NCBI GenBank assembly: GCA_027593235.1
Contig: JAQCIU010000013.1
Coordinates: forward strand, 1 to 64,000
DNA: 64,000 nucleotides
Reading direction: 5' to 3'
Origin: Chloroflexota bacterium
Lineage (GTDB): Bacteria > Chloroflexota > Dehalococcoidia > UBA2979
Part shown: positions 50,293-63,738 of the stretch, in pieces
Position numbering within the stretch: position 1 is the stretch's first letter
Layout: the number at the start of each line of letters is the position of its first letter
Notes under the pieces: generated by a model
What the model was told of the DNA's origin: nothing
The model's database searches: none
Seen by the model: only the letters and a program-made list of their open reading frames with translations
Translations under genes and position numbers: made by a program

Positions 50293-51117
50293 TTAGCCGT
50301 TGGCCGCGACGGGCGACCGTCCACTCATTCGTTCGCAAAAGGCACGCACCAACGCGGCGCGTTCGTCCCGGGGCGCATCGCGCACGAGGTTGACGAACGC
50401 GCTGCCGACGATCGCGCCATCCGCGATGCTCCCGACTTCCCGCACGTGCTCCGGCTCCGAGATGCCGAAGCCGACGGCGAGCGGCAGGTCCGTGTGGCGG
50501 CGCACCCGAGCGAGGAACTCCGCGAGACCTACAGCCATCTCCTGACGCGCGCCAGTGACGCCCGCCAGGCTGACACAGTAGACGAAGCCGCCGGCGTGTT
50601 CGGCAACCACCTGGAGCCGCGCCTCGGTGGAGGTGGGGGCGACGAGGTAGATCACGGGGAGTCCGGCGGCGCGCGCCGGCCCTTCGACCTCGGCCGCCTC
50701 GTTCGGCGGCATATCGACGACGATCAGCCCATCGACGCCCGCGGCGACGGCATCGCGCACGAAGGCGTCGCTCCCATAGGCGAGCAGCGGGTTGATGTAG
50801 CCCATCACGATGATCGGGATCTCGATGCCGCGCGCGCGTAGATCGCGCACCGTTGCGAAAACGGTGGAGGCGTTGACGCCCTGGAGCAGGGCCTCGTGGT
50901 AGGCCTGCTGGTTGGTAGCGCCATCGGCGAGCGGGTCGGAGAACGGGAGGCCGAGTTCGATCGCATCCGCGCCGCCGGCGATGGCGGCCTCGATAATCTC
51001 GGCGGTCGCATCGGCCTCGGGCCAACCGGCGGGCACGAACGGCATCAACGCGGGGCGGCCTTCGGCGCGCGTCCGGGCGAACATCTCGGCGATGCGATCG
51101 GGACGGTCAGCGGTCAA
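50293..51117 (-). CDS. trpA: Tryptophan synthase alpha chain
   Basis: ELGLPFSDPLADG, MGY.NP, GVTG, VGFGIS, DGAIVGSA; the TTG start overlaps the upstream stop. Confidence 0.96.
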   Translation of the reverse strand: MTADRPDRIAEMFARTRAEGRPALMPFVPAGWPEADATAEIIEAAIAGGADAIELGLPFSDPLADGATNQQAYHEALLQGVNASTVFATVRDLRARGIEIPIIVMGYINPLLAYGSDAFVRDAVAAGVDGLIVVDMPPNEAAEVEGPARAAGLPVIYLVAPTSTEARLQVVAEHAGGFVYCVSLAGVTGARQEMAVGLAEFLARVRRHTDLPLAVGFGISEPEHVREVGSIADGAIVGSAFVNLVRDAPRDERAALVRAFCERMSGRSPVAANG

Positions 51118-60344: not shown

Positions 60345-61274
60345 TTAGTCCTGGCGAGCGGTGTCCGACATCGCCAGGAGCTGTTCGGTGTGTTCGTGTT
60401 CGTGGCGGGAGATCTTGGCGATGCGATCGCCGATCCGGACGGCACCGCGTTCGTGGTGGTTGCCGTACTGGGTGAGCTGATCGTCCTCGAGACTGGCGAG
60501 CCAAAAGCGGGTGCGCTCGCGCGCCGCGTCCAGGCGTTGGCGCACGGTTTCGAGGTCGTCGACCGGCCGCGCGCGGTAGAGATCGTGCCACTGCGCGTCG
60601 TTGAAGCCGCGCCAGGTGTGCCCGGCGATGCGGAGCAGCCGATCGGTCTCGGCCAGGTAGTAGGTCTCGACATCGGCGATGTGCGCGAGGATGTCGAGCG
60701 GCGACCAGCCGTCCGTCAGTTGCTCCTCGCGAGCCGCCTCGGGGACGGACTCGAAGGCGGCGAGCAGCGCGCCGCGCGTCTCGTTGAGCAGCGTGCCGAT
60801 CGCATTCGCGGTCTGCGGATGCTCCGCAGCGCCGAGGGTGCGGGCGAGCCAGGCGGCGACCTCCGGCAGCAGTTCCGAGCCAACCGACGGGGTCGCGGGG
60901 TGTGCCCAGACGGCATCGGCGTAGTGCTTCGCGTTGAAGCGCGGCTCGCCGCGCCATGCACGACAGAGGAACGCGTTCACGATGAAGCGTGAACCGCCCT
61001 CACCGCTGACGTAGAGCGTGTCCTCGAAATCGAACGGACCCGGCTCGACGTGGACGTGCTCGCGCAGCACGCGCCCGAGTGCTTCCTCGGCGGTCTCGTC
61101 GTCGGCGACGCCGGTGATCGGGAGCGACCAGCGGCCGGCGAACGGACCGGCATCGAGGTGCCGGAGGAGGAGGACGCGGCCGTCGTCACGGCGCATCACG
61201 GCCGCGGAGGCAAGCAGCGGGCCGGCCGGTGGGCCGGCAGATGAAGCGGGGGGCGGAGAAGCATCGTTGGTCAT
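60345..61274 (-). CDS. NUDIX-like domain fused to a DinB-family domain
   Basis: N-terminal GRVLLLR..GRWSLP..DETAEEALGR; C-terminal WSPLDILAH...HEHEH. Confidence 0.82.
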   Translation of the reverse strand: MTNDASPPPASSAGPPAGPLLASAAVMRRDDGRVLLLRHLDAGPFAGRWSLPITGVADDETAEEALGRVLREHVHVEPGPFDFEDTLYVSGEGGSRFIVNAFLCRAWRGEPRFNAKHYADAVWAHPATPSVGSELLPEVAAWLARTLGAAEHPQTANAIGTLLNETRGALLAAFESVPEAAREEQLTDGWSPLDILAHIADVETYYLAETDRLLRIAGHTWRGFNDAQWHDLYRARPVDDLETVRQRLDAARERTRFWLASLEDDQLTQYGNHHERGAVRIGDRIAKISRHEHEHTEQLLAMSDTARQD

Positions 61275-61291: not shown

Positions 61292-62761
61292 CTAGTAGCC
61301 GAGGCTGCCGGTCGGCGGCCCGCCCTCGCCGTGTTCCGCATCATCCAACGCGGCGATCAACGCGCGCGCCTTGTGCTGGCATTCCTCGTACTCCTTCAGC
61401 GGATCGGAGTCGAAGACGATGCCAGCGCCCGCCTGCACGTGTGCCCAGCCGTCCTTCATCACCAGCGTGCGGATAGTGATGCAGGTCTCCGCGTTGCCGG
61501 ACATGTCGAAGAATCCGACGGCGCCCGCGTACGGCCCGCGCTGATCCGGCTCGAGTTCGGCGATGATCTCCATCGCGCGGATCTTCGGGGCGCCGGAGAC
61601 GGTCCCGGCCGGGAAGGCGGAGCGCAGCGCGTCGTAGGCGGTCATGTCGTCCCGCAACCGGCCCTGCACGTGGCTGACGAGGTGCATGACGTGCGAGTAG
61701 TACTCGATGTCGAGCTGCTGGGTGACCTCGACGGTGCCCGGCGTGGCGACGCGTCCGACGTCGTTGCGGCCGAGGTCGAGCAGCATCACGTGCTCGGCGA
61801 TCTCCTTGGGGTCGTGGGCCAACTCCTCGGCGAGACGCTCGTCGTCGAGCGGAGTCTCGCCGCGCCGGCGGGTACCGGCGATCGGGTGCACCTCAACGAG
61901 GTCGTCCTCGATGTTGACCAGTAGCTCCGGGGAAGCGCCGACGATGTAGGTGTCGTCGAACTTGAGGTAGTACATGTACGGCGAGGGATTGATCGCGCGC
62001 AGGCTGCGATAGACCTCGAACGGGTGCGCCCCCGTCTGCCGCGAGAAGCGGAGCGAGATGACGCCCTGAATGATGTCGCCCTCGACGATGTAGTCCTTGA
62101 TCCGACCGACCGCGGTCATGTACTCCGCCTGCGACCAGTTCTCCTGGATCGGCTGACCGGCGACACCGTCGAAGGGGATGTACGGCAGCGCGCCGAGCGG
62201 GATCTCGAGGCGGGCGACGAGTTCGTCGATGCGGCCAACGGCCTGGCGGTAGCTGGAGTCGATATCGCCGTCGAGCCGGACGTGCGAGACCACCTTGATC
62301 GAGTGCATGAGGTGATCGAATACGAGCAGGGTCTCGGCGAACATCAACCATGATTCGGGCAACCCGATGGTGTTCGGACCGGCGATCGGCAGATCCTCGA
62401 AGTGACCGCCCGCCTCCCACCCGAGGTAGCCGACGGCGCCGCCGTGGAAGCGGGGCAGCCCCGGGACCTCCACGGCCTGCAGGCGCCCGAGTTCGCGTTC
62501 GATTTCGTCGAGCGGATCGCCATCGCTGTGATCGCGCGCGGCGACGCGGAAGGGCTCCGTGCCGATGAAGGAGTAGCGCCCGAGCCGCTCGCCGCCCTCG
62601 ACGGATTCGAGGAGGAACGAGTAGGGACCGCGGGCGACCTTCAGGTAGGCGGAGACGGGCGTCTCCAGGTCAGCGCGGACCTCGCGGAAGACGGGGACGA
62701 TGTTGCCTTTCCCCTGGAGGCGACGGACTTCGTTCAGGGGTGGGGTGTACTCACCGGGCAT
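61292..62761 (-). CDS. trpE: Anthranilate synthase component I
   Basis: LETPVS, FLLESVEGG..GRYSF, NPSPYM, PIAGT, EHVMLLDLGRND, GTVSGAPK. Confidence 0.97.
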   Translation of the reverse strand: MPGEYTPPLNEVRRLQGKGNIVPVFREVRADLETPVSAYLKVARGPYSFLLESVEGGERLGRYSFIGTEPFRVAARDHSDGDPLDEIERELGRLQAVEVPGLPRFHGGAVGYLGWEAGGHFEDLPIAGPNTIGLPESWLMFAETLLVFDHLMHSIKVVSHVRLDGDIDSSYRQAVGRIDELVARLEIPLGALPYIPFDGVAGQPIQENWSQAEYMTAVGRIKDYIVEGDIIQGVISLRFSRQTGAHPFEVYRSLRAINPSPYMYYLKFDDTYIVGASPELLVNIEDDLVEVHPIAGTRRRGETPLDDERLAEELAHDPKEIAEHVMLLDLGRNDVGRVATPGTVEVTQQLDIEYYSHVMHLVSHVQGRLRDDMTAYDALRSAFPAGTVSGAPKIRAMEIIAELEPDQRGPYAGAVGFFDMSGNAETCITIRTLVMKDGWAHVQAGAGIVFDSDPLKEYEECQHKARALIAALDDAEHGEGGPPTGSLGY

Positions 62762-62897
62762 GGCGAACCTCGTGTATGGCGCTTGCGGGACGGCGGCTGA
62801 GCGAACGTGCACGGCTGCGCCACCACTGCCCCCGGCCGCTGTGATCGCCCAGAGGGCGACCGGCGTTGGCGGGCACGTGACGGGTGTCGCTGCTCAT
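62751..62897 (-). CDS. Putative 48-aa trp leader peptide with tandem Trp codons
   Basis: GAGGAG RBS 9 nt before the ATG; MSSDTRHVPANAGRPLGDHSGRGQWWRSRARSLSRRPASAIHEVRHAR; overlaps the trpE start by 11 nt. Confidence 0.6.
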   Translation of the reverse strand: MSSDTRHVPANAGRPLGDHSGRGQWWRSRARSLSRRPASAIHEVRHAR

Positions 62898-62982
62898 CGT
62901 TCGATTCTCCTCATCCCAGCGGCCATACGGCCGAGGGCTCCTCGTCTCGCCTCGGGCGGTTGACCGAGATCGTTTCGCACAC

Positions 62983-63270
62983 AAAAAAACCACCGCCCGT
63001 GGGGCGATGGTCCTCGCGGTGCCACCCACATTTCGCCGGCACGGCGGAGCCGCGTCGACGCATCTTCGGAGCACGGCCACCGTTCGAGACGGGGCGATGC
63101 CCTGGGCCTGGATAACGGCGCCCACACCGTCGACGCCTACTTGCGCTCCAGAGGAGCGCGTTTGGGCCGAGACTCACGGGTCCATTCGGTCGTTGCTGGC
63201 GGGCGCCGGTTCTCAGCTTGTCCGGTTCTCTGTAGCCCCGCGTGACGACGTACTACTCCCGATCAACGTC
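62983..63270 (-). ncRNA. T-box riboswitch with Trp (UGG) specifier and intrinsic terminator
   Basis: Stem I with AGUA, AGAGA and GCUGAGA motifs; GAA-UGG-A specifier (63182-63184); T-box AAUGUGGGUGGCACCGCG (63015-63032); hairpin plus U7 (62983-63011). Confidence 0.93.
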
Positions 63271-63296
63271 GGTATTGAAACCTCAGTAATCGGTCG

Positions 63297-63325
63297 AGGC
63301 TACGCCACAGCTCGAAAGCATGCAA
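63297..63325 (-). promoter_or_regulatory. Sigma70-type promoter of the trp operon
   Basis: TTGCAT-17 nt-TAGCCT just upstream of the T-box. Confidence 0.65.
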
Positions 63326-63342: not shown

Positions 63343-63738
63343 CTACGCCTCGTCCGGGCCTCGCGAGCCAAGCTGCTGGGCCGAGTCACACAACTCCACG
63401 TATGAATCGAAGAACTGCTCCTGAAAGCGGACGGCCGCGGCGATCTTCTGGGCGTCCCAGGTCTCCGCGCCGACGACGGCGACGAGCTTGTCTTCGACGT
63501 CATCGCGACGGCGCACGATGCCGACGACCTCGGCGCGCTCGCAGACCTCGAGGGGTTCGCTGGTACCGAGGAGGTAGACGTCGAGTTCTTCCCCGTCGGG
63601 GGCGAGCACGCCGGGGACGAAGCCGTAGTTCACCTCGTAGGCGTAGCCGTGCTCGGGGTGAGTGGATCCGAGCGGGCGATCGATCACGACGCGCGTGGTG
63701 CGCCCGGTCCAGTCCTGGGGGTGGAGTGAGTCGTCCAT
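63343..63738 (-). CDS. Small inorganic pyrophosphatase-family protein
   Basis: IDRPLGS.HP, YEVNYGF, DGEELDVY, EDKLV. Confidence 0.85.
   Translation of the reverse strand: MDDSLHPQDWTGRTTRVVIDRPLGSTHPEHGYAYEVNYGFVPGVLAPDGEELDVYLLGTSEPLEVCERAEVVGIVRRRDDVEDKLVAVVGAETWDAQKIAAAVRFQEQFFDSYVELCDSAQQLGSRGPDEA

Follow-up and report, generated by a model that had tools for sequence, protein, structure and literature searches.

A T-box and a tryptophan-codon leader in series upstream of trpE in a family of Dehalococcoidia

The trpE gene of a Chloroflexota bacterium of the class Dehalococcoidia (assembly GCA_027593235.1) is preceded by two elements in series that can each report on tRNA-Trp: a T-box with its terminator and, between that terminator and trpE, a short open reading frame (ORF) with tandem tryptophan codons that ends just inside trpE. 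We analysed them in a stretch of 64,000 nucleotides (nt) of contig JAQCIU010000013.1 (positions 1 to 64,000), hereafter the window. A sequence-only reading of this DNA had proposed two stacked tRNA-Trp sensors, and we found that the double sensor is real and extends across the family: conservation of the leader's ribosome-binding site, Trp codons and overlap in relatives strongly supports the proposal. The most likely reading of the second sensor is that it acts on translation of trpE. All positions are coordinates of the whole window, and the entire regulatory region and the trp operon lie on the minus strand, where the putative promoter is followed by the T-box, the terminator, a 221-nt spacer and trpE. 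The features on which the argument rests are as follows.

63297 to 63325, minus strand: putative promoter, from sequence; -35 TTGCAT (63325-63320), 17 nt, -10 TAGCCT (63302-63297)
62997 to 63275, minus strand: T-box leader (stem I, stem II, IIA/B, stem III, antiterminator), from the RF00230 match
63182 to 63184, minus strand: specifier codon UGG (Trp) in the context GAA-UGG-A, from the Rfam alignment
63018 to 63024, minus strand: T-box bulge UGGCACC; its UGGC can pair with GCCA at the 3' end of the genome's tRNA-Trp
62981 to 63011, minus strand: intrinsic terminator (hairpin, then U run), sharing sequence with the antiterminator; fold z -3.88
62907 to 62912, minus strand: leader Shine-Dalgarno (SD) sequence GAGGAG, 9 nt before the leader ATG
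62751 to 62897, minus strand: leader ORF of 48 codons, from ATG to TGA, in a different frame from trpE
62820 to 62825, minus strand: tandem Trp codons 25 and 26, the only Trp codons of the leader ORF, 58 nt before the trpE ATG
62767 to 62771, minus strand: weak trpE SD GAGGT, inside the leader ORF
62728 to 62806, minus strand: C-rich, G-poor stretch around the trpE start, by its C/G ratio against control genes; an open landing site or a Rho site
61292 to 62761, minus strand: trpE, anthranilate synthase component I, 489 amino acids (aa), TIGR00564 over cut-off; ATG at 62761

The gap of about 220 nt, the 48-codon ORF within it, its GAGGAG, its sole tandem Trp codons and its stop inside trpE were all found where the sequence-only reading had put them. 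Leader and trpE overlap by 11 nt; the leader TGA comes 8 nt downstream of the A that opens the trpE ATG. An in-frame Trp-Trp arose by chance in 31 of 5000 dinucleotide shuffles. Scanning the whole genome, we found a short ORF with a strong SD ending at the candidate start of 23 of 1796 long ORFs, and two of those 23 contain a Trp cluster: the trpE leader and one case on contig C35. An in-frame GTG at 62812 had been a candidate start for trpE and was ruled out because homologues align from 62761.

We surveyed the family using 99 genomes; 97 of them, from 21 genera, yielded a trpE N-terminus, and each of these contributed one locus to the analysis. Because the genomes are related, counts across them are non-independent trials; the pattern also holds when genera are taken one at a time. 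At 68 loci in 16 genera, trpE has a T-box motif with a U run no more than 1 kb away. Applying a rule blind to tryptophan, which takes the best SD in the spacer and an ORF of at least 25 codons, we found, at 60 of these 68 loci, an ORF with at least two Trp codons that ends no more than 40 nt from the trpE start. The eight that the rule missed comprise four with Trp ORFs from a hand-chosen start (one with its stop at -45), two with a single Trp, and two with none (G055 and G102). Aligned upstream regions of trpE thus bear out the proposed conservation, with a leader ORF containing at least two Trp codons at 64 of the 68 T-box-bearing loci, 60 by the blind rule and 4 with a hand-chosen start. 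At the 67 loci where an ORF was picked, the leader frame contains 185 TGG triplets, the other two frames 33 and 25. The insert between terminator and trpE that holds the leader ORF spans 130 to 310 nt, and the leader is 34 to 54 codons long, with its first Trp at codon 16 to 25 in the 60 blind picks. The leader SD is stronger than that of trpE at 58 of 65 loci, and trpE's own SD is kept, with a GGAG-type signal at -11 to -8 conserved in the family.

The T-box with UGG specifier and terminator reported for this locus was confirmed by a match to RF00230 over the full model (1-219, at 63275-62997; 67.2 bits, E 2.3e-14), by the bulge complementary to tRNA-Trp and by the terminator fold. The Rfam check was favourable in extent, although not in score: at the gathering score of 93 bits the window contained no Rfam match, and the trpE T-box falls short of it. 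Such sub-gathering scores are common to all three T-boxes of the source genome, and T-boxes likewise fall below the gathering score in four of the six control genomes with matches. As expected of a T-box, terminator and antiterminator are mutually exclusive by overlap, and the specifier fits the pathway it precedes, with UGG ahead of trpE. A UGG specifier was found in 67 of 68 family T-boxes, clearly in 66 and beside a second candidate in 1, while 1 of the 68 could not be parsed. In 11 of the 68, the bulge reads GGCGCC instead of GGCACC. The promoter proposed for this locus received a mixed verdict. A similar pattern precedes 60 of the 68 family T-boxes, reading TTGACA/TAGCCT in 31 (raw counts, with no chance baseline), yet a sigma-70 scan found no promoter at the locus and TTGCAT-17-TAGCCT lies below its threshold. 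The two further T-boxes of the source genome (L032 and L033), also below the Rfam cut-off, each have a gene start about 60 nt past the terminator; we take these genes to be thrS and ileS.

What selection keeps in the second element can be read from a set of 72 leaders: the 64 with at least two Trp codons, 2 with one Trp, and 6 that lie behind trpS. Relative to the trpE start, the leader stop falls between -4 and +14 in 64 of them, between -25 and -45 in 7, and at +38 in 1, and in 38 leaders stop and start overlap as ATGA. As a control, the unused out-of-frame frame stops between -10 and +14 in 19 of the 72. The last Trp codon lies 43 to 86 nt before the trpE start in all 72 leaders and never closer. 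In multiple alignments, gaps in multiples of three account for 33 of 52 inside the leader ORF versus 18 of 74 upstream, and in an alignment-free comparison 21 of 25 distinct lengths of the leader ORF are in phase versus 13 of 35 upstream. Pairwise DNA alignments showed no such frame keeping (35 of 85 gaps in multiples of three), although alignments of this kind split gaps and we judged them unreliable. One leader (L141, genome G093) has a 1-nt deletion after its Trp codons that moves its stop to +38, the sole such case among the 18 loci of genus g6.

The peptide encoded by this frame shows a different history. Between close pairs, substitutions at the three codon positions were 0.16/0.15/0.14 in the leader versus 0.02/0.01/0.19 in trpE, and Trp is enriched 4.4-fold in leader peptides, with every other residue at 1.7-fold or less. 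These comparisons show, at the level of sequence, that the Trp codons, the frame and the stop position of the leader are under selection while the peptide sequence drifts. Given that codon-position rates are flat and yet the frame is kept, translation of the frame matters and its product does not, and the drift of the peptide makes the leader a codon sensor rather than a protein. We consider it very improbable that the peptide itself is functional or that the ORF has simply arisen by chance in GC-rich DNA. The peptide has been called as a protein in a sequence collection (a singleton cluster, 2 contigs), but it had no NCBIfam match, and the flat rates compared with trpE, the Trp enrichment and the excess of in-frame TGG all speak against both possibilities.

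Natural variants help to show which parts travel together. An adjacent T-box is missing at 29 of the 97 family loci. At seven of these (L249-L255; G005, G045-G047, G051-G053) the order is T-box, trpS, trpE, with the T-box present in all seven and trpS closely following the terminator; in six of the seven the Trp leader sits between trpS and trpE. Since the leader stays with trpE when trpS intervenes, it belongs to trpE and not to the T-box. A close relative in the same genus as the source (G002; L005 / L258) has no T-box and a leader without Trp codons, and it has kept the SD, the start, a 47-codon open frame and a stop at +8 although the intervening sequence has diverged. In genus g10 (L023, L177-L183), which also lacks the T-box, all eight loci have an SD-led ORF of 18 to 21 codons, picked by eye, with one Trp at codon 15; these ORFs stop 69 to 84 nt before trpE, the gap after this early stop is U/C-rich, and predicted folds pair the ORF start region with sequence before the Trp codon. 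No leader was seen at the remaining 13 T-box-less family loci (g8, g15, g16, G007, G091). In genus g15, loci L022 and L174-L176 have kept the promoter and a T-box-type terminator about 60 nt apart, with the tRNA-binding part gone and an ATG directly behind the -10; another g15 genome, G102, carries a complete T-box but lacks a leader.

We compared the family with an outside sample of 60 loci from 36 families, hand-picked among the 150 matches listed (249 of 301 genomes matched). A T-box motif occurs within 400 nt of trpE at 24 of the 60, mostly much nearer trpE than in the family, and none of these 24 has Trp-Trp in the spacer between T-box and trpE; three more outside T-box loci likewise have no leader. 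The other 36 outside loci lack a nearby T-box; in 25 of them trpS is the gene immediately before trpE, and in those inspected it often ends where trpE begins. What looked like Trp ORFs in other families came mostly from reading the 3' end of trpS out of frame, and these were rejected. A single-Trp ORF of leader geometry was found at 1 of the 60 loci (L201, G268), where trpS is followed by a 37-codon ORF whose one Trp lies 50 nt before an ATGA overlap; it may be a chance occurrence or a distant relative. At another locus (L231, G383), a T-box-like motif and terminator are followed by a frame that reads Trp-Cys-Ser-Ser-Trp-Trp but has no start codon. In a TrpE tree built from 100 columns by a quick method, with 77 rows and no more than 3 for any genus and state, the rows from outside the family part from those within it at support 98, but the tree is too weak to order events. 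Several leaderless loci fall among leader-bearing genera in this poorly resolved tree, which suggests that they are losses.

Given a cluster of Trp codons ahead of trpE, a transcriptional attenuator is the natural comparison. The leader resembles classical trpL in its clustered Trp codons, usually followed by Arg, before trpE, and the likeness to E. coli TrpL drawn earlier holds for the WW-R motif. It does not extend to the mechanism of a classical attenuator, since none of the 72 leaders has a U run after the leader start or the Trp codons. Between positions 62000 and 64000 we found a single intrinsic terminator, the one upstream of the leader ORF, and no second one. Thus, unlike classical trpL, which is described for E. 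coli, Corynebacterium and Streptomyces in the relevant parts of PMC8346122 and PMC1262725, the ORF here comes after the terminator and runs into trpE, with no terminator or antiterminator following its Trp codons.

A switch in RNA structure could also connect the Trp codons to trpE, with the UGG codons pairing with the trpE SD and start until a stalled ribosome frees them. Pairings of this type can be drawn by eye at some loci, and the wider trpE start region opens by about 2.8 kcal/mol when all upstream sequence is covered. However, the predicted cost of opening the trpE start across 65 loci was 9.7 with the RNA free, 9.4 with a ribosome at the leader start, and 9.7 and 9.9 with a ribosome on the Trp codons, so a stall would bring no lower cost. 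The real Trp block closed the trpE start more than shuffled versions in just 35 of 70 comparisons, and no helix common to the genera emerged when six genus groups were aligned. Having failed the folding tests and lacking a shared helix, this switch was rejected as a candidate, and we regard it as improbable. The leader differs in the same way from attenuators that sequester the SD, in that we found no conserved helix between stall site and target SD.

Our preferred account is a tentative one, which we place a little short of even: tRNA-Trp charging would be sensed in tandem, with ribosomes translating the leader blocking initiation at trpE and a ribosome stalled 43 nt or more upstream leaving the start free. 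In a first step, uncharged tRNA-Trp would hold the antiterminator so that transcription passes the terminator, as is established for T-boxes generally and as the anatomy seen here would allow. The readthrough RNA would then carry the leader ORF, in which conservation indicates that Trp codons, frame and stop position are selected and the peptide is not. When tRNA-Trp is charged, ribosomes loaded at the strong leader SD may finish on the trpE SD and start, leaving little new initiation; when it is short, ribosomes may stall on the Trp codons, leader traffic would end, and the weakly structured, C-rich trpE start would be free. Finally, untranslated trpE RNA could be open to Rho, which would spread the effect down the operon. 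The spacing of 43 to 86 nt between Trp codons and trpE start leaves room for a stalled and an initiating ribosome together, and trpE starts are easier to open than control starts (genus mean 10.1 versus 12.9 kcal/mol). Occlusion is favoured by the 43-nt floor, by trpE having retained its own SD and by the easily opened start region, and the sign of such control would be sensible. Also in its favour are the position of the leader stop, the stronger leader SD, the leader's staying with trpE where trpS intervenes, the RtpLP precedent discussed below, the presence of Rho in most family genomes, and the failure to find TRAP in the family or TrpR in the source genome.

Several observations weigh against this account. 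The trpE start in the source's own genus is harder to open than controls, at 16.6 kcal/mol, and the 43-nt floor could simply have been inherited. The ATGA overlap is, by the account available in PMC12548453, the best geometry for positive coupling, and PMC13285730 describes four Sinorhizobium meliloti upstream ORFs (uORFs), overlapping by up to 13 nt, that raised downstream expression. If reinitiation is efficient, completing the leader would switch trpE on. The Trp-less leader of G002, which lacks a T-box and still has its SD, start, open frame and overlap, also fits a positive role.

The opposite sign therefore deserves consideration, in which trpE would be translated mainly by ribosomes finishing the leader, so that a shortage of charged tRNA-Trp would limit TrpE synthesis through the Trp codons and the pair would act as a band-pass needing both uncharged and charged tRNA-Trp. 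Selection holds the leader stop at the trpE start, such overlaps usually couple positively, and the frequency of trpS directly upstream of trpE outside the family, together with the G002 leader, agrees with coupling of this kind. Yet Trp synthesis would be lowered when most needed, the 43-nt floor and the kept trpE SD would go unexplained, and seven leaders stop 25 to 45 nt short of trpE. We consider this sign distinctly unlikely.

Two further possibilities concern the fate of the RNA. In erm leaders of Bacillus, a stalled ribosome protects the mRNA, and here too a ribosome stalled in the leader might shield the downstream trp mRNA from 5'-to-3' decay, with the overlap coupling trpE positively. 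This would have the right sign, would account for the ATGA overlap and the Trp-less leader of G002, and would fit the leader's staying with trpE behind trpS. The source genome also has a gene matching TIGR00649 over cut-off, presumably of RNase J type, but matches over cut-off occur in 8 of 14 control genomes as well, and a gene of so common a type is little evidence. Stalling would, moreover, reduce the coupled ribosome flux. On balance, protection of this sort appears rather unlikely.

Alternatively, Rho attenuation may be the main output, the C-rich stretch being a Rho loading site and the position of ribosomes on the leader deciding early termination in trpE. The C/G ratio from the Trp codons into trpE is 1.8 and 2.3 in the family versus 1.0 and 1.1 in 466 control genes of the source genome, in 12 of 16 genera the C>G bias is no lower than the 90th percentile of control genes, and Rho is present in 93 of 99 family genomes. 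A C-rich, G-poor stretch and Rho, as expected of a Rho-dependent leader attenuator, are thus both in place; no intrinsic terminator follows the Trp codons, and the g10 variant has its U/C-rich gap after an early stop. However, a ribosome stalled on the Trp codons would cover only about 12 to 15 nt of the C-rich stretch, so a stall would expose the site, and no untranslated gap separates the leader stop from trpE. The stretch would stay hidden during a stall if initiation at trpE covered it, and Rho attenuation in that form reduces to the occlusion account. Rho has been proposed for terminator-less leader peptides in Actinobacteria, in the part of PMC1262725 that treats them. As the main output here, we find it unlikely.

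Among known systems, the closest parallel to this locus is the at operon of Bacillus subtilis, whose Trp T-box, rtpLP and rtpA were reportedly worked out by Chen and Yanofsky in 2003 and 2004. As there, a Trp T-box is followed by a Trp-codon ORF with its own SD that ends at the next gene's initiation region, so that tRNA-Trp charging is read twice in series, and the comparison made in the sequence-only reading was an apt one. The ORF rtpLP has about 10 codons and stops just before the SD; the ORF here has 34 to 54 codons, its last Trp codon lies 43 to 86 nt ahead of the target gene, and in most cases its stop overlaps the beginning of that gene. The target is also different, being trpE and not rtpA, the regulator that encodes anti-TRAP. 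TRAP itself (PF02081) was found in none of the 99 family genomes. With trpE as target and no TRAP found, we do not assign the locus to the T-box/rtpLP pair. Complete translation of RtpLP prevents RtpA translation in B. subtilis, according to the sections of PMC2311275 that concern it. The two systems belong to different phyla, and the origin of the present one is probably independent.

Other systems share single traits with this locus. It is like transcriptional T-box leaders of the RF00230 type in having the full anatomy, a Trp specifier and a terminator before trpE, and a T-box before trpE is reported for Dehalococcoides in PMC2494555, whose passages on it mention no leader ORF. In other Dehalococcoidia families trpE usually lies close to the terminator, with no Trp-Trp ORF at any of the 24 T-box loci sampled, unlike here, where the leader is inserted. 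The tandem T-boxes before trp operons of Bacillota, as presented in parts of PMC12452182, likewise place two tRNA-Trp sensors in series, whereas here the second in line is not a T-box but an ORF whose translation reads charged tRNA. Translationally coupled uORFs with ATGA overlaps (described in portions of PMC13285730 and PMC12548453) resemble the leader in their stop-start overlap, strong upstream SD and unconserved peptide, but they lack a cluster of amino-acid-sensing codons matched to the pathway. A full-text literature search found no description of a T-box plus leader ORF at trpE or in Chloroflexota, with supplements and most subscription papers outside the search and a mention in a T-box survey possible, and found none of the band-pass logic in which uncharged and charged tRNA-Trp are needed at once.

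The controlled operon is headed by trpE and runs trpE-(Nudix/DinB-like)-trpG-trpD-trpC-trpF-trpB. The gene between trpE and trpG (60345-61274, minus strand) encodes 309 aa with weak Nudix matches toward the N terminus and weak YfiT/DinB-like matches toward the C terminus, and it contains 8 Trp codons versus 0 to 4 in the six trp genes counted. The trpA gene lies apart at 50341-51081 (minus strand), about 4.6 kb beyond trpB, with several ORFs between, some on the opposite strand. Upstream of the promoter, the gene at 63343-63738 (minus strand) matches inorganic pyrophosphatase weakly. The source genome, which is 90% complete, yielded no TrpR.

In the literature found, T-box and leader-peptide sensing together had been described for a single Bacillus regulatory gene. 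Here the double sensing sits directly on a biosynthetic operon, in another phylum and in 66 genomes, and it comes with natural variants in which trpS lies between the sensors, the Trp codons are lost, the T-box is lost, or the leader stops early. Its design rules can be stated simply: the Trp cluster comes later than codon 15 and 43 nt or more before the start, and the stop falls on the start. The arrangement raises the question of whether a stop-start overlap, usually a device of positive coupling, can serve as an amino-acid-gated repressor that needs no RNA hairpin. With confidence just below even, we suggest that the family has an independently built, portable and structure-free Trp sensor, an ORF in which only the Trp cluster, its minimum distance and the stop on the trpE start are conserved and which would gate trpE by ribosome traffic. 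In such a system, one T-box could drive trpS while trpE would need a second signal or, if the overlap couples positively, the pair would form a band-pass requiring uncharged and charged tRNA-Trp together. In either case, T-box surveys that end at the terminator miss a second layer of control.

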